A stretch of DNA of 52,566 nt, the filler included, from Porpidia crustulata (lineage: Eukaryota), in the NCBI GenBank assembly GCA_964255105.1. It is 4 parts of 4 records of this genome, joined end to end, with 100 filler letters (N's around TTAATTAATTAA, not from the genome) between each part and the next. Parts side by side here need not be neighbours in the genome. Positions count along the whole stretch, not along the records: positions 39,528 to 52,566 come from CAXUWE010000464.1; 3 more parts are not named here. One strand, written 5' to 3'. Each line of letters opens with the position of its first letter. Position 1 is the first letter of the stretch. The position numbers were made by a program, and so were the translations under genes. Positions 13,106 to 50,400 of the stretch are shown here, piece after piece. The notes under the pieces were generated by a model that saw nothing but the letters and a program-made list of their open reading frames with translations, searched no databases and was not told where the DNA came from.

Positions 13106-13205
13106 NNNNNNNNNNNNNNNNNNNNNNNNNNNNNNNNNNNNNNNNNNNNTTAATTAATTAANNNNNNNNNNNNNNNNNNNNNNNNNNNNNNNNNNNNNNN
13201 NNNNN
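13106..13205. other. Artificial contig spacer (N44-TTAATTAATTAA-N44)
   Basis: Exactly 100 nt, with a central palindrome giving stops in all six frames; identical to the other two spacers. Confidence 0.98.
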
Positions 13206-26287: not shown

Positions 26288-26387
26288 NNNNNNNNNNNNN
26301 NNNNNNNNNNNNNNNNNNNNNNNNNNNNNNNTTAATTAATTAANNNNNNNNNNNNNNNNNNNNNNNNNNNNNNNNNNNNNNNNNNNN
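26288..26387. other. Artificial contig spacer (N44-TTAATTAATTAA-N44)
   Basis: Same 100-nt construct as 13106-13205. Confidence 0.98.
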
Positions 26388-39427: not shown

Positions 39428-39527
39428 NNNNNNNNNNNNNNNNNNNNNNNNNNNNNNNNNNNNNNNNNNNNTTAATTAATTAANNNNNNNNNNNNNNNNN
39501 NNNNNNNNNNNNNNNNNNNNNNNNNNN
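39428..39527. other. Artificial contig spacer (N44-TTAATTAATTAA-N44)
   Basis: Same 100-nt construct as the other two spacers. Confidence 0.98.
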
Positions 39528-42410
39528 GGGTTGGGATCGGTGAGGGGATAGGTGGTGGTGGCGGTGTTGTAGATTTCGTTGGGCGGGGGCATGATGCTGA
39601 TATTTTGGTCTTCGAGGTTGACGTGGTTGGTCGGGATGCCGGCTAAGGGGTCGTTTGGTGCCATGTGAGTGCTGTTGATGGCTGGATATCCGGCGTTGGG
39701 GTTGGCGCTGGTGTGGGCAACACCCATCTCCGGGTGCTTCGCTCGGCGCTTTCTTGAAAATGCGGTTGCTTGCCTGCCGGAGCGGGGAGCCAATCTGACG
39801 AATTTGTTCCGGATGCTGGAGATTAGACCCTCGAGGAAATCGGCAATGCGCAGGCATAAGTGAACGTCGTCGACGACGCTGGTGCGCAAAGCTTTGACCG
39901 TGTGGTCGAGGAGTTGTAGCGATATTGCGACTTCATCTTCTTTGGCTCCGAGGGCAAAGGTCTGGTCAATGGGGTCAGTCATGGCGTGCTGATTCTACTC
40001 GGATAACTTTACCTTGAGGAGAAACATCGCGCCAGACAAGATCCTAAAATAGGTTCTTGTCGGAGCATGCTTTAGAGAATCGTCTGGAAGGAGCCCGTTC
40101 ACTAAATGTCGTAGAAGCGTCCTTGAAGCGTCGACGCATTCTTTGATGTAATACTCATTCTGTCGGTACAAAGTAGCGAGTGAGGAAGATTTCAGTGGCT
40201 TTGAAGGATGATTGGTCCCGGTGTTGCTGATCCACTGCTCAAGCACTGCTTGGAGCGCAAGAGAATTGGCGTAAACCCTTGTGTATTCATATTCCATTGA
40301 TAGTATCACTTTGTGTAGTCTTTCCACTGTGAATAATTAACCAATATTAAGAAATGTATCATGTTCACCACGATTCTCACCTTCCAGATTGTCGAAACCT
40401 TTCTTCCATAATTTAAGCATGGGCTGGTGCTGCTCTAGGGCGGATAAATACTCCCCACTTTTGATCAAATCTCGTGTCTTTTCTTTTGACGGAAACAGTT
40501 TGGAATTGGTAGACTTCATGATCATGGTAATCTCCGCCCAGCATTGTTGTATCGTCTCAATAGGGCTCTGAGGTGTTCGATGCTGATATTGAAGAAACTT
40601 CAAGTCTGCGCCTGAGTAATCACGCTCTTGAAGATGATCAGGGAACATGCTTGGAAACCCAAGTCTGCCGCTGGTCTGCGTTACATAGATGGAGAGTAGT
40701 CGCTTGACACGGCTTGCTCTGAGACCTTCTGGTGGCGAACCATTACTTACATTTGTGGTGGTTGAAGTGCCGTCAGCGAAATTGCCAAAAAGCCCAAGCT
40801 CGTACGCCAGAGCGTAAGCTGTGGATATCAAACTCCAGCACATTCGGTCAGAACGCAAGGCCGGCTCGGTCCATCCAGATATCGTGTTCTCTCCTGTAGA
40901 AGATAAGCCTCGTACATCACTGATATCTGTTGCACGGCCTTCTTCTAAAGGTACAAGAATCTCGTTATCATTATCTCCTGGTGGAAAATGCATAGAGCGG
41001 GGATGGAATTCGCTCAAAAGTAGGAGACTAAGAAGGTACTGTCAGTCCGAAAGAACCATCCGTAACAGATGCTCAAATGTGTCGACATACCTCTCGATAG
41101 TTCCCAGGGAGCGAAGGCCACCTCTGTCTGATGTTTTCTGACCGAGTTTATGCAACCCCCCGCCGCAAAATCCGCCACCAAACTGCTCTTGACCCCAAAA
41201 CATGCGTGTAATCATATTTTGTAGGTAAATCCAGAGCTTTTCGTGTATCATGAAAGATCGGGATTGCCCGCCAGGACCTGCGAGCCTCTTGTAGCGACTA
41301 GCAATCGTGAGTATGGTAACTGTAAGCATGGGCTCTTCGTTCAGAAGCGTCGAATGAGTGTCCAATGAGCGGAAATTTGGCGAGCTTATAGGGGTGAGAA
41401 GCGCGAGGTGTTTATAATAGCTAATAAATCTTAGCCGCGTTTGTTGAAGGGCTTAGAGGCAATGGTATGTACTAATCGATATAGGACATTGCTTCAGTTG
41501 CAGTGAGCCACCCAGCACGCACAAATCGTAATCGAGACCAAACGTTGATTGCCTCATGGTAGTCGGCAGTATTTGTATCTAAAGCAGGCAAATGACCAGT
41601 GATAATTGCTGGATCTATATTTCCGGGTTGACTTTGAATCACTCGAGCCAGGCCGTCATGCGCTCTCTGGTCACTGTAGGTAATTGGGGTTGCTCCAAAC
41701 TCATTGGCCAGTGAGTGTCTCTGATTATTCTGAAGTCGATTCTGGTGGCGGTTAATATCCTCACTTCGGCCAGACGCCTCTAGGAGCAGATGTAGGGCAT
41801 CACCAGGGCCGTTGATAGGAGACTGGAACAGCGCTGCAGCCGTCTCATTGGTGACCTCCCGATCTTGCGAAGTTTCCTTGCTGTCGTCCCCCATATCTCC
41901 AAAATATGGATTCGAGGCCGGAGGTGGTTCATGATTGTTCAGGTTGTACTCAGCTGTAGGCGATGTGATCAACTGAGATTCGGAGTACAATGGCCGGTGA
42001 GAATTTGGCAGGGACGCCTCACGACTTATCGGCGGAAGTTGGCTGATAGACAGCTTTCTTCTGCTATTATGCTCGGCATAGTCATCTTCACGGTCATCTT
42101 CTCTTTCCATCAAGCCATCCGCATCCCCCACCTTCCGCTTTCTTCTTGTGGCAGAGAAGTAGCAGTCTTTGCTCTCTCGTCTGCATCTCACACATGGTGG
42201 ATCGTGGGGATCATCGACAGGACCAAGATCGCAGCGCACCTTTCGGCGTCGACAAGGTATCTAGAGCACTATTGAGTCACAGATACGTCGCGGAGTAGAC
42301 ATTGCACATACGCATGCTTGATATGTGCGCTTGTGAATTTTTGTCAAATTTCTATCCGAGGTGTCTGAGCTCGCAGTATGGCTTGTAAGGTGAGTCGCAG
42401 TAGAAGCCAT
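39528..42410 (-). CDS. ARO80: Zn(II)2Cys6 transcription factor, Aro80-like; multi-exon, 3'-truncated
   Basis: Spliced cluster [43 protein letters not shown]. Aro80-family blocks [50 protein letters not shown] and VVDDVHL. Confidence 0.85.
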
Positions 42411-43036: not shown

Positions 43037-46000
43037 TTATGGCTGTTTGTTTTGAGGCATCCTCGACTTTCTGTCCAATAAGTCTCCCAGTAAGCCATCA
43101 AGTTGTGTGGAAAGCTCTCCAAGCTTCCGGTTCTCTTCCTTGAATAGGTCCTTCACTAAAGGGTGGTCTGCTCCAGCTGGCTTGACATCTGACTTGTCAT
43201 GAACGACGATTAGTAGATCTCGGATATCGGTGTCATCTTCAAGGTACGCTCGCAAGCTAGCATCGCTCCAGGTTGGAGTGCCTCTGGATGATTGAGCAGT
43301 TGAGGCGGGAGTCGCCTCCCTTGCACTCCCTGCCCGCGGTGCTTCAAGAAGCTCAGGTGATGAAGGAAGCGAGACTGGCGAAACGGACGGATCTTCTTGA
43401 GAGGATGTGTCGATCATTAGTGGCGGTGGTGTCTTCGAATGCGGTAGGTCTTGTGAAACGACCTGCACAGGCGATTCTGATAAGCGCTCTCGGGGACCTT
43501 GGCTACCAACATCCGCTGGACCTGACATCTTATGATTCGTTAGCGTTGTAGGAATTTCTTCGGTATCTGATGAAGAAGCGGAGTCATCCATGGGCATGCG
43601 GTGAGTTGCCGCGTGGACCTGCTCCACTCCAGACTCGGATGACGGTGCTGATGGTGAGAGTTCCGTGCGCGATGTGAAAGTTCCGTGGTTAGTGTCCTGC
43701 AGTGATTCTGGCGAAACTCGTTCTTGGCGTGCCTGCTCAGTATGTTGGAAATGTAGAGGTGCTGGCGCATCATCACTCCACTGCCTTTGCTCATATTGAA
43801 CCGCACGCACCGATGCGTTGGGTTCTGCGGCAAGTGGTACAGCGGGGTTGGCTTCGGGGCTGATCGCTTTCTGTTGCTCTATAACCATGGCACCTGTAGC
43901 TGGTGGTTCATCCCGTGGAGCCAATGGCTTCATGGTTTGCAAACGATTGGAAGGATTAGCACGATTCGCTGAGGCGGATCGACTGACTGGTGGAGACTTT
44001 TGTAATTTACTGGTTTGTCTCTGAGGTTGAGATTGAGCATTGGCTTTGGGTGGTTGTACGTCTTGAGTAAAAGACTCTGACGACTCTTTCGGCTGCGGCG
44101 AATGACTTGGTTCTTCCAGTGATTTCTTACCATCTTCCATCTCATCATCTTGTCCCTTACTCCTCTTATCTTTCCGTTTGAAGAGGCTGTTGAGCATGCC
44201 CTTCTTCTCCTTGCGCTTTTTGTCCTCTTTGGCTTTCTCCTGGGAAGATGTAGTCTTTTCGAGAGATTCAAGGCTTGGCCTTGGCTTGAGCTACAGAGAA
44301 GTCTAAGCAGATATAAAGAAGCAACAGCGACATCGATGCAACTAACCTCTTTCACCTCGTTCGATTTTACCGTCGATCCACTAGAGTCATCCCGTAGAAG
44401 ACTCGGGGTTAGGTTAATCTTCCGTGTCTCCATTGTATCATCCTTGAAGAACGAGTCTGTGTTGCGAACGGTGCGCCTCCCTGATCTGCCTGCGCCACCG
44501 TCATCTGTGGTTTGTCAGTCATGATTATCCATAGCCTTCTGCGCAGAAGATTCTACCTTGCTGTTCGAAAATCTCGTTGCTTGTCCGCGGCTTCTCTGCT
44601 AAAACGGACTGGTCTGCATCGCTGTCTCGAGGGTCGGACTCTGATATAGAGACACTAGCTGGCTCTTTGGGCTCGATTCTAGCTTTCAAAGGCTCGACAA
44701 CGGCAGTGTCGTCGACATCTCGTTCCTGATCTTGCGTCTCAGCCTGTTCCATCTGTGGCAGGTACTCCCCTTCTTCCTGCTCTTCTTCATCTGTAGAGTA
44801 TTCCACGTCAGAGGGATCAAAGTATTGGGGGGCCGCAAATTGGACAGTCTTTGCATTGCGACGACGCATGGCTTTTTTTAGGGGATTTTTAGACTTTTCA
44901 GGGTTATCCCCAAGCATTGTTTGTGATAACTAGGAAAAGAACATTAGTAAGCTGAACTGTGCGAATCTTACATTTTGAGTCTTACATCTATATTTCTGTG
45001 TTTATTTAATCTGGCTAGTCGTTCTGTGGGGGTCTCAATATGCTCTGCTGGCAAATAGCCTACTCGGGCCCATCAATAGACATTCCATATTCGACAACGA
45101 AAGAATATTACCAATACTGCTGTCTTTGACAACTCTCACTAGCCACCAATAGCTGTTACTATCATCGAGAAGTACCATAGTGTCTCCTTTCGTGGCATTC
45201 GCTTGGCCTTCGACTGTGGCAACAAAGGTGTGCAACGCATATACGAACTCGAAATCGATGTCTTCTATTTCGCGTAAGCATTCTCCCCCCCATCCCGAGT
45301 CGGTGAAGCGCGAATCATCAGAAAAGGAAATATCCTCGGTATCATCATCATTCCGTTCTGGGAGCTGATCTTCCAATCCAAGGGAGGACGATATGGATGA
45401 GGAAGGTGAGAGAGGTGCGTCATCAAAGCTGTTATCCAATAGGGGATCATCTGCAGGGAGTAGTAGATGGTGAAAATCATTGATATCAAAATCCCCGTCA
45501 TACGAATCCTGCAAGTCATCGATGTCTTCATGAAAATGGCCTACCCTTCGCTGAGCCATCAAAGGGTCATCCTGATCGAGGAGCTCCGATATGTGATCAT
45601 TCTCCCGTGAAGTTTGGCCATCCTCGGCGGAAGTTTGGCTTCCGTCGTCCACGGCATACCCACCCTCATGATGATGATCCTCGGATGGTGGCTGGTTCCG
45701 CTCTTTCTGCTGATAGATAAGAGGAAAGTGTATGGGAGACGAAAGGAAAGGTGAAGAGGAAAGCTCGTCATGTTCACGTGGAAGGGGTGGCATGTCTTCT
45801 TGTGTAGGTATCGAAAGCAAAACGTCGCGTCGAAGGGTCCTAGGAAACGGCAAGGGGTACCCACCATCGTCTATTGAAGGGGAACTGGATATCTTGTCCA
45901 TCAGGTCATCGTCCATGCCATCGTCTCCATCGACGTCCCCCGTATCTCCTTCCCCTCCATTCATGCCCATAGAATCTCCATTTCGCTGTAAAGTATGGAG

Positions 46001-46341
46001 CTCTTGATTTGACCCAATCCTATCATCTGAGCCATAGGAGCCTGCATCTTCGTGGAGCAATTGCAATTCTTTATCTGACAAGTCCTTGGAATGTCGCGGA
46101 CTGCGAGTGTGCATGTCGTGCGCTGCTCCTTGTTCGACATTTTTAAGAGTCTCAGCTTGATGAGGAGCAGGAGGGCCATCGCCTAATGGCGCAGGTCGAG
46201 CCGGCTGTCGGGTATGATCTTTGGCAGATGGAGAATCTTGGTCTTGAAGATCGATCGTATCTGTAAATACCCATATCAGCGAGTACTCTTGACCAGACTT
46301 CTACGTATCCTACCAGCCCGAATAATTTGAGGTCGTGTCAT
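43037..46341 (-). CDS. TEA4: SH3-domain cell-end marker / PP1 regulator (Tea4/TeaC/Bud14 family), multi-exon
   Basis: Start MTRPQIIRA/DTIDLQD; SH3 DIDFEFVYALHTFVATVEGQANATKGDTMVLLDDSNSYWWLVRVVKD/YLPAEHIETPTERLARLNKHRN; RVxF-type KTVQF; C-terminal WSDASLRAYL and coiled coil. Confidence 0.9.
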
Positions 46342-47166: not shown

Positions 47167-49174
47167 TCAATCATGAGCGAGACGTTGCAGCCACCACGAC
47201 TTGCCATCGGACTTGTCAAGCTCGCTCCCATCGCCAGAGTAGCCGATGCGGTTCCGGTTGTCATCAATTATGCGAGCATACTCGATCAGGAGCCGGAACA
47301 TATATACCTGCTGGATCGTTAGCATCTGGAAAGAACTTTCGTGGCAACATGAATCCGGGCATTACCTCCATATCGTCTCTCCGTAGAACCTTTTTCGCCC
47401 ATTCTCGACCTTGACTCGCGACCCTTTTTCCTTCCATGTCGTGCTTTGCTACATATGCATTGCCGTAGGTGGTAGCGGAGGCGATCCCTAGCGCTCCAAC
47501 AGGGGTACCAGTACCGAGGAAGTAAGTTAGTAAAGTGTATAAATCATCAAATCTGTTGTCCATGGGCACAAAGTGCCGCCACGCAAATAGCCTTGAATCG
47601 TGCCATTCGCGGAATATTGTAGCCTTGATACCGAGAGACTTGCTCTCAAGGAATGCCCGCCATCGGCCAGAGAACGACATTCCATCCACGTCGACCAAGA
47701 ATTTGTATTTGAATTGTTCTGCTGGTTGTATCGAAGGCTTAAATGTCCAGACGCCCTCGTAAAAAGGACAGCCGTCTGGATGGCATCCATTGGCTTCGGT
47801 AAATCCAATATCTGTGTGATCTTTCGCAAATTGTGATGGCTCGAATCTCCTGAAGTTCTCATATTCACCCCTTTTTTCTGGTTGCTCTGCTAAAATCCTA
47901 AACTCTCTTCCTTGTAATAACGTACTATTAGTGTCCATTACAAGACGCTGGCGATGCATCCTTCGCCAGTTTTCCTCGTTTTGAACACCTCCGGAAGTCA
48001 CACCGCGCCATATCATCGTGTCCTTCTTCTCAGCCCAGTCCAGATCATGCTTGCCATTGTATTCATACCGCTCGTCATTCTTCCAATACATATTTGCAGG
48101 AAAGATAATATCACTATTCACATTGACCTTGCATTCCCCAAAGATAGGCACAAGACGCTTAGTTGCAATAATCGTAGAAGCGGTGAAAAGAAAGCCATGT
48201 TTATCGTGGATCTCTGGACCAACTGTGCACAAGTCCGACGAACGGTTAAAGTCGGTCACGATGCCCCCGAGGCGGTTTTTATAGAGATTTTCAGCATCCA
48301 CCTTGGTCGAGTCGTTCTTCCGAGCGCGAGATTCAGGAGGGCAAGCGGTACTAGCAATATCCATGTATGGCTTCCCATGTGCAGGAAACCACTCGGGATC
48401 CTCACGCTTTACATCAATGTCTTCCACAATCAAATCAGCGAGACCCTCCATGTTTTGTGTAAATTCATCAGCGGCGTCTGGAGGTGTTTGACGTGTCTTC
48501 GATTCTGTAGCGAGCATAGATTGCATGTCGTCCCACGGGACTACCACTCGAGGTTGATCCAAATTGTTCATCGCAATGTCCATATCCGGAATGTATTTGA
48601 TGACTTGCTCGATGAGGGTAACCATAACCTCGGTTCTCCAGTTCGGGTTGGTTTGGTTCACCACCTTGTGGTTTCGAATGTGTATACCCGAAACTCCTTG
48701 CTCCTTATCCCTCCACATGTTGGCTGTCAAATTCCGCAGAACATGTGGCTCGACAGCCCAAAAGGGACGCATGTCGCCCATGATGTGTTCAAAGTCATCG
48801 ATATTATGGACGTTCTTCTTTCTGGCGAATTGGTACCATTCTTTGAACCCCGGTGGTGGATGGCGCCCATACTTCCTCCTATACTTGCTCACGGTCTCTT
48901 TGAAAGTCTTTGATAAGTTGTCATTGTATTTTCGCCACGCCTTATCAGCGTCTGCCATTAATAGAGAGATTGGATGTGTATCGATGGGTTCCACAGACTC
49001 ATCGACCATTTCGTCTGATTGCCATGGTTTCTTGGGCCTACCTGGGATTCGAAACTTGTCAATTTTGGACTTGACATCTGTTTCTGAAAGCGTAAGGTAA
49101 TTTCCAACAACGAGCAGAAGAGCGAGTGCTACAATGGCCAAGAACAGACGCTGTCTAGATCGAAAGGAAATCAT
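47167..49174 (-). CDS. Glycosyltransferase family 90 (CAP10 / beta-1,2-xylosyltransferase-like), type II membrane protein, one 3' intron
   Basis: N-terminal TM segment LFLAIVALALLLVVGNYL, then HPISLLM, YRRKYGRHPPPGFKEWY, NNLDQPRV, WRGVTSGG, HRQRLV, YKFLVDVDGMSFSGR, FREWHDSRL and spliced LRRDDME/VYMFRLLIEYAR. Confidence 0.93.
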
Positions 49175-49457
49175 TCTTGATTCATGGGTAGGTAACGAGA
49201 CATGCGCCGTCTTGGACAAACATCAAACAAGCGCCTAGATCTGATATTGAGTATATTAACATTAGCCATGACCATTCCAGACGTCCAGGGCGTGGGCATA
49301 TACGATGATTGCCATGTCGCCTTCATCCAGATGAAACGTAGATAGCTAAATTGTTGCGGGAAGACTTGCGCCAATCCGCGTGCCGCCGAAAGCCAAGACA
49401 TTCCGTCCCAGGCTCAAGAAGACATTGATATATTTCTCCACCACGCATTGCTACACC

Positions 49458-50400
49458 ATGTCATCACATCTTCGTAATGTGCTGTGCGTCTCGAATCAGG
49501 CCTCGACTAAGTTTATGAATATATCGCCCTTCCTACTCCCTTGCTTACAGACACAGCGGCGCGCCGCCTCAATCCTCTCCAGTTTGTCCGACAACCCAGG
49601 CGCATACAATAAGAAGATCAGGAGAGGACGAGGGCCATCATCGGGTAAAGGTAAAACTGCAGGAAGAGGTTATGGAGGCCAAAAAGCTCGCGGAAAAGTA
49701 CCGTTCGGGTTTAACGGCGGGCAGACTAAGTTGGAAGTTGTGCATGGTATCAGAGGCTTTGTGAATGTGTACGTTTCTGCGTCTTGTCATTGTCCTCGAT
49801 CACTAAGTTGACTAAAATATCTACTTTAGCTTCTCTGTGGACATGCAACTTGTCAACCTCGATCGCATTCAACTATGGGTTGATCAAGGGCGACTCGACC
49901 CCACAAAGCCTATAACTATGAAAGAGCTGCGCGACTCTCGATGCGTCACAAACATCAAAGACGGTGTGAAGTTATTGGCGCGAGGTTCCGAGCAGCTGAA
50001 AACCCCTCTAGACGTGGTTGTCTCACGAGCTTCTTCCGCCGCCATATCGGCCATTGAAGGGGCTGGGGGATCAGTGACCACCAGATATTATACCCCATTC
50101 GCGGTTCGACGAGTCCTCCATGGACAGAGTGATCCTATCTACTCATTGGGTTCTCGATCTATCGAGGAGGAGCACTCTGTGGAATCAGGGAGGCCCTCTT
50201 TCCTCAATCGCCTACCCGATCCTACAAGCAGAAAAGCCATTGAATATTATAGGGACCCGGCGCACAGGGGTTACCTTAGCCACACAGTCGGAGAAGGGCA
50301 AGGTCCTAGTTTATTTTTCAAGACGCCAGGAGATGGAAAGCCTATGACGCGGAAAACCACAGCAGGGAGGCCTACTGCAGGGGAGAATCGCATGTGGTGA
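49458..50400 (+). CDS. MRPL10: Mitochondrial ribosomal protein uL15m (54S L10); intron 49769-49829
   Basis: ASILSSLSDNPGAY, RRGRGPSSGKGKTAGRG, GFNGGQT, VNLDRIQLWVDQGRLD, DGVKLLARG and YYRDPAHRGYL. Confidence 0.95.

Follow-up and report, generated by a model that had tools for sequence, protein, structure and literature searches.

Tea4 is a well-studied regulator of fungal polarity and septation. In published reports, Tea4 recruits PP1 at the cell ends of S. pombe (PMC8108516), M. oryzae Tea4 governs branching, septation and appressorium remodelling, and A. nidulans TeaC is found at septa (PMC10881174). The Tea4-type gene of Porpidia crustulata contains, directly before its SH3 domain, 600 nucleotides that begin and end like an intron and yet read as an open frame throughout. 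Is this segment an exon, an intron, or both in turn? The window, meaning the whole stretch of DNA analysed here (52,566 nucleotides, assembly GCA_964255105.1), consists of four pieces of about 13 kb from different contigs, separated by N runs at 13106-13205, 26288-26387 and 39428-39527, and the gene lies entirely inside the last piece. The gene and its parts, in window positions, are as follows.

43037..46341, minus strand: Tea4/TeaC/Bud14-type SH3 gene model; its joined exons (46341-46314, 46260-45112, which contains the segment, 45059-44986, 44929-44557, 44504-44347 and 44290-43037) translate through to the stop
45265..45864, minus strand: the segment, an in-frame coding intron, phase 1, 200 codons, GT...AG, 600 nt
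45131..45238, minus strand: SH3 domain (PF00018), first part, the rest being in the next exon
44837..44851, minus strand: KTVQF motif, present in the open reading frame and in the alignment consensus

Homologs of the product are named 'Tip elongation aberrant protein Tea4', 'Bcbud14' or 'protein phosphatase regulator', the nearest ones come from lichen fungi (Letharia, 62%), and a genome search returned a single match, as for a single-copy gene. By these names, the homology and its N-terminal SH3 domain, the gene is placed with Tea4/TeaC/Bud14. The PF00018 match on protein P0001 (residues 341-376, E 3e-4) falls under the cut-off as a fragment and over it in full-length homologs. We take the KTVQF motif to be a candidate RVxF-like docking motif for PP1. 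A PDB search returned generic SH3 domains only, a Pfam search found no domain inside the segment, and two AlphaFold2 models were of low confidence (mean pLDDT 53 and 47.5), with even the SH3 domain unfolded. Upstream, the neighbouring gene encodes a glycosyltransferase of family 90 (47264-49222, minus strand), with a ribosomal L15/L27A-family gene (49816-50400, plus strand) on the same side; the downstream neighbour encodes a Zn2Cys6 transcription factor (41472-42260, minus strand). PF05686 occurs in the same protein as Tea4 in several lichen-fungus models (P0029, P0035, P0044), which are probably merged gene models that reflect a conserved Tea4-GT90 gene order.

A sequence-only reading of the window had described the segment as a stop-free exitron with splice signals, and its coordinates proved exact: on the minus strand, the donor GATG|GTGGGT lies at 45864, GCTTAC at 45279-45274 and ATAG| at 45265. 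The coding frame is open over all 600 nt and the other two sense frames have stops. Removal gives the seamless join that had been predicted, ISSSPSIDD-EDIDFEFVYAL, and a product of 811 aa; retention gives 1011 aa (not counting the stop and one trailing codon). The segment is about 11 times as long as the other introns of the gene (52-56 nt), close to the tenfold excess first estimated, and has the GC content of the exons (0.50, against 0.36-0.44 in the five other introns of the gene model). The suspicion that so long an open frame is improbable by chance was well founded, as shuffling the bases of the segment left 3 of 20000 copies without a stop. The label Asp/Glu-rich fits the segment as a whole (Asp plus Glu, 24%) but hides an uneven distribution, with 10 such residues among the first 66 and 37 among the last 133.

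Ortholog loci were taken from a metagenome scan as the best 80 of 361, ranked by score against the long form, a ranking that favours open frames. Seven of the 80 lacked the upstream motif and were dropped; the other 73 and the window make up 74 loci with both segment ends, of which 45 are non-redundant at <90% identity. These 45 are related by descent and so do not represent 45 independent events, and their neighbouring silent sites are well mixed. Within the best 80 of 361 plus the window, the segment length is a multiple of three in 74/74 loci (420-882 nt) and the segment is stop-free in 72/74; in the non-redundant, equally score-biased set the figures are 45/45 and 43/45, so that the multiple-of-three length and open frame to be looked for in orthologs were both found, as in a PTC7-type intron kept across species. 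The two alternative frames are stop-free in 1 and 0 of the 45 loci. As a control, the next ordinary intron (located in all but one of the 45 loci) measures 45-59 nt, is a multiple of three in 17/44 loci and is both that and stop-free in 8/44.

The encoded peptide is constrained as well. Of 19 hand-picked pairs, 18 have a segment dN/dS of 0.14-0.61 and the other is saturated; among the window and its close relatives L002 and L009 the values are 0.14-0.29. Of the longer homologs, the best 120 of 1036 (from a search biased toward the long form) nearly all carry a segment of 150-330 aa ending in a near-invariant DSGWGGECL, which corresponds to the following feature.

45275..45310, minus strand: RFTDSGWGGECL, codons of the best-conserved peptide in the segment (GWGxECL in 45/45 loci, R[FL]xDSGW in 42/45)

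The GWGGECL ending that the first reading had singled out is therefore kept, as GWGxECL, in every locus. Other motifs recur in the 45 loci as PxRxxS (37), SSP[FY] (37), Px[HY][FL]P (34) and [DN]P[LF]L (28). Silent positions vary among loci at R, D, S, G, G, G and E of the RFTDSGWGGECL peptide, and also in the WPxR, SSPF, LPxxDPLL and RFxDSGWGG motifs; because they vary, selection on the segment appears to act at the level of the protein. The comparison supports the reading of the segment as a spliceable intron under protein-coding selection.

A different pattern is seen at the ends of the segment, where silent positions are fixed.

45859..45864, minus strand: donor D1, GTGGGT, within the Gly codon GGT after SSSPSIDD (GGT after an Asp codon in 45/45 loci)
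45274..45279, minus strand: branch-like GCTTAC over the Cys-Leu codons TGC TTA (TGCTTAC in 45/45 loci)
45265..45267, minus strand: acceptor TAG (preceding codon N[CT]A in 45/45 loci)

The rule for locating the donor was to take the first xGT codon lying no more than five codons from the motif Ile, which makes its GT a product of the rule; the independent part of the donor test is the presence of an xGT codon at the aligned place in 74/74 loci. The whole D1 hexamer GTGGGT occurs in 31/45 loci. With this reservation for the GT, the terminal GT and AG proposed for checking are fixed in 45/45 loci, and the segment has the canonical donor, branch and acceptor expected of an exitron (GT, TGCTTAC and YAG, 45/45); one class of locus pairs has GTAG and still ends in TAG. 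The earlier suggestion that the last codons of the segment double as branch site and acceptor gains from these alignments, in which Cys-Leu is written TGC-TTA and the acceptor codon is fixed as NYA. Across the 45 loci, the N[CT]A codon before the acceptor encodes six different residues (T, I, S, A, V and L). In the neighbouring SH3 part, TTA makes up 20/180 Leu codons; within the segments its share is 8%. Between -15 and +51 of the acceptor, 24 columns have an invariant residue from a four- or six-codon family, and only two of these use a single codon: TTA for the Leu of the branch, and GGT for the Gly at the next known donor. A canonical branch, CTAAC or CTGAC, would read as a stop in the register of the segment, and for this reason TTA looks like a stop-free compromise. 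As a branch in the control intron, CTTAC is rare (2 of the last matches listed in 44). Donor strength was scored as complementarity to U1, out of 11; D1 seems no weaker than an ordinary donor, because it reaches 6.69 and the neighbouring control donor 6.44.

Both forms are on record in relatives, as the first reading had proposed, both as isoform pairs from the same locus and as transcript-like proteins of each form. In Exophiala xenobiotica (PV05_00612), KIW60395.1 (965 aa) and the 'variant' KIW60396.1 (778 aa) differ by exactly the segment (187 aa), as do KIW33816.1 and KIW33817.1 (953 and 770 aa) in Cladophialophora immunda (PV07_00637). The 'variant' records of these black-yeast pairs presumably rest on RNA-seq. 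Both lengths are also recorded for E. dermatitidis and Xanthoria, and the lichen-fungus short forms include a Xanthoria calcicola model (P0186) and a transcript-like protein (P0101). Transcript-like here means a protein found only in Logan, JGI or ENA and crossing exon junctions on contigs of 2-7 kb; such proteins are most simply explained as transcripts, since the open reading frames on long contigs from the same clusters go exon by exon. There are 29 short and 4 long transcript-like proteins, counts that come from searches of opposite bias with entries that are not independent, 23 of the 29 short ones being from one 120-row homolog listing. The four long-form proteins, found only in Logan, span the other exon junctions on contigs of 3.7-4.9 kb. 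Two transcript-like long forms of one cluster, P0004 and P0136, are 8 aa apart (1105 and 1113 aa), which hints at another small splice difference in a different part of the gene. For Porpidia crustulata itself, the one run that came up, X1, consists of one near-identical contig lacking joints; it may be the source of this DNA and carries no information on splicing.

RNA-seq from P. oryzae bears on the same question. In the published report, TEA4 (MGG_06439) has a second intron of 579 bp, a multiple of three; the normal spliced transcript encodes 812 aa, and the transcript that retains the second intron is less abundant, encodes a truncated product of 263 aa and is classed as aberrant (PMC8475275). 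From its rank, its size and the protein length, we infer that this is the same intron as the segment. The supplements of that report, searched for TEA4 intron retention, gave no match. Taken with the 29 short and 4 long proteins, the P. oryzae data hint that the spliced form is the main mRNA.

Besides D1, the segment contains a second in-phase donor candidate, D2 at 45663, which is new here.

45656..45663, minus strand: internal donor D2, GTGGGTAT, phase 1, 201 nt after D1, found by a GTRRGTAY scan
45668..45677, minus strand: TCATCATCAT repeat (His codons) directly upstream of D2, with a bias to CAT

Splicing from D2 to the acceptor would remove 399 nt in frame and give a predicted product of 878 aa. 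In a scan blind to the protein, GTRRGTAY occurs in phase 1 in 36/45 loci, at 0.29-0.44 of the segment length, against a mean of 4.2 and a maximum of 9 in 500 rounds of synonymous-codon randomisation; 37 matches are in phase 1 and 1 is in another phase. The peptide pattern 'HHxGEY/GGY', which encodes G|GTRRGTAT, finds D2 in 39/45 loci, and in these 39 the GT, the G at +5 and the T at +6 are invariant while the residues change (G/S, then E/G/R/K/V). On this pattern of conservation, the 'HHxGEY/GGY' motif is to be read as an RNA signal. The U1 match of D2 is 7.95. His codons up to 6 codons from D2 are CAT rather than CAC by 75 to 4, compared with 133 to 116 elsewhere in the segments, which suggests that the TCATCATCAT repeat is a candidate splicing-regulatory element. 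A plain D2-spliced protein was found neither by two homolog searches nor in a scan of 501 proteins, although clustering at 90% could hide one; among the 501, P0153 is the only gene model with an exon that ends at D2. D2 may serve as a genuine alternative donor, or it may be a decoy.

Further observations concern the surroundings of D2. The model P0153 suggests a cassette micro-exon that would start at an inner acceptor and finish at D2. As a conserved feature this was rejected: YAG sites ahead of D2 differ from locus to locus in position and phase, all three of the window's nearest ones are out of frame, and in the orthologs neither an inner acceptor nor a phase is conserved upstream of D2. 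In the 39 loci, the part between D1 and D2 is rich in pyrimidine (0.60, compared with 0.48 between D2 and the acceptor and 0.41 in the upstream exon). An extra GTAAGC in phase 0 lies at segment offset 303 in L002 and 300 in L009, both close relatives of the window, and is not general.

The long frame is widespread, not universal. A second sample, the best 150 of 378, was drawn with a profile limited to the sequence that precedes D1; it is blind to the segment, the profile itself being built from long-form-biased loci. It contains 10 spliced proteins, 78 that read through (56 raw open reading frames and 22 models), 59 that end before SH3 and 3 without the motif. Among the 59, 20 end at most 40 residues from D1, 34 run for at least 65 and 14 pass a recognisable D2; some of these early ends may be contig ends. 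The open frame is lost or interrupted in Paecilomyces, where an open reading frame of the cluster stops 18 residues past D1, in Hypoxylon fragiforme, which ends early, in P. oryzae, and in Trichoderma and Annulohypoxylon, whose frames pass D2, then stop and keep an RFxDxGW-like tail. Histoplasma models have a tail without GWGGECL, and Alternaria models use an inner acceptor. Two loci of the main set, L056 and L061, share an in-frame TAG at segment codons 81-82, upstream of D2, with a dN/dS of 0.27; their stop could reflect an inner intron, readthrough or an internal start.

The reading that we consider probable from these sequence comparisons is an old, alternatively retained, protein-coding intron in the Tea4 gene, which would account for the dual constraint in the orthologs and for both forms in relatives' records. 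Against full retention stand L056 and L061, whose constraint despite the TAG it does not explain; against coding retention stand the truncated 263-aa product of P. oryzae and the 59 of the segment-blind best 150 of 378 that end before SH3. An explanation that we regard as unlikely traces the coding constraint to use of a part of the segment and not mainly to full retention; such use could come about by splicing at D2, through inner acceptors or nested introns peculiar to certain lineages, or from an internal start that precedes GWGGECL. The Trichoderma and Annulohypoxylon frames with their kept tail, the 14/59 early-ending proteins that pass D2, the constrained L056 and L061 and the inner acceptor of Alternaria models all agree with it. 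Against it, the frame is intact across the whole segment in 43/45 loci, and transcript-like full-retention proteins are on record; nor is an inner acceptor or phase conserved upstream of D2, or a D2-spliced protein present among the 501.

A retained intron that serves regulation would lower Tea4 output by nuclear detention or decay, the long protein being rare or irrelevant today. The less abundant, prematurely stopped retained form of P. oryzae, the excess of short over long transcript-like proteins and the loss of the frame in many lineages fit such a role, which we nevertheless judge improbable, somewhat more so than use of a part, as the dN/dS of 0.14-0.29 among the window, L002 and L009 and the motifs with free silent positions need ongoing translation. 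That the segment is a plain exon in Porpidia crustulata, never removed and with splice-like codons as leftovers, agrees with the mostly long annotation of the best-scoring lichen homologs but is very improbable, given that the splice signals of the window are all intact and show no silent-site variation among the closest loci, and that short forms are recorded for lichen fungi (Xanthoria calcicola P0186, P0101).

If the segment is indeed an alternatively retained coding intron, its length and a branch one base off consensus, to avoid a stop, may make its removal incomplete or regulated. Splicing from D1 to the acceptor would give the main Tea4 of 811 aa, with SSSPSIDD joined to SH3, and retention would give a minor form of 1011 aa with a probably disordered insert of 200 aa directly before SH3. 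The insert carries the motifs P-x-R-x-x-S, SSPF-x-x-x-P, LP-x-x-DPLL and RF-x-DSGWGGECL, some of which we take to resemble kinase sites. Its likeliest effect would be to add docking or phosphorylation sites and thereby to alter partners or access to SH3, because S. pombe Tea4 acts as a scaffold at cell ends and recruits PP1 to the cortex, and because the insert directly precedes SH3 and carries short conserved motifs. D2, with its better U1 match, may compete with D1 and yield the 878-aa third form, or act as a decoy that favours retention. The gene thus probably has two protein products, one short and one long, and perhaps a third. The two isoforms proposed at the outset find a counterpart in relatives, but an acidic spacer is too simple a description of their difference, which includes several conserved short motifs and D2. 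A broader scheme can be offered as speculation: Pezizomycotina Tea4 would carry an ancient three-way splicing switch, built from a dual-coded intron with a pair of conserved donors in competition, a control element of CAU repeats and a branch that avoids a stop. The switch would produce short, medium and long scaffolds that differ around SH3, and the long form would have been kept in some lineages and truncated or lost in others.

Retention or removal of the segment explains the two database lengths of the Tea4-type gene, and Tea4/TeaC studies based on cDNA or on a single model may have covered one form only. The best-studied species appear to have lost or broken the long frame, as published for P. 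oryzae and as Paecilomyces and short-only records suggest for Eurotiales. The segment is also a clean natural case of splice signals and a protein motif sharing the same bases. In the literature searched, neither conserved coding retention nor a second donor is described for Tea4; most subscription papers lie outside this coverage, and supplements of isoform surveys may list the event. The accessible part of the P. oryzae report describes no conservation, coding constraint or second donor (PMC8475275).

According to Marshall et al. (2013; PMC3597508), fungi rarely show alternative splicing that diversifies proteins and has persisted over long spans. Fungal SKI7/HBS1, treated in the same text, resembles the Tea4 case as ancient alternative splicing that yields two proteins and was lost in some lineages, but uses alternative 3' splice sites and has experimental proof, whereas Tea4 combines retention with a candidate alternative 5' site and the evidence is comparative. 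Exitrons of Arabidopsis and human, as described in the main text of Marquez et al. (2015; PMC4484396), in which the word 'fungi' does not occur, are internal parts of coding exons that lack a stop, have canonical signals, resemble exons in size and GC content and show a synonymous substitution pattern. The Tea4 segment is likewise an internal, stop-free part of a coding exon with dN/dS below 1, so that the term exitron suits it as a spliceable and coding stretch; it suits less well in that the retained form is the major one for exitrons and the spliced form appears to be the major one for Tea4. PTC7 of the Saccharomycetaceae also has a stop-free intron with a length that is a multiple of three and is kept across species, with spliced and retained mRNAs that both code, and is a phosphatase-related gene; its intron, restricted to a single yeast family, codes for a transmembrane helix (Marshall et al., 2013; PMC3597508). 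By contrast, the Tea4 segment is 420-882 nt long, bears motifs, has the second donor D2 and occurs in several filamentous ascomycete classes, and the role of long Tea4 is putative. With its spliced form apparently dominant, the Tea4 segment looks closer to a coding retained intron of the PTC7 type than to a classic exitron.
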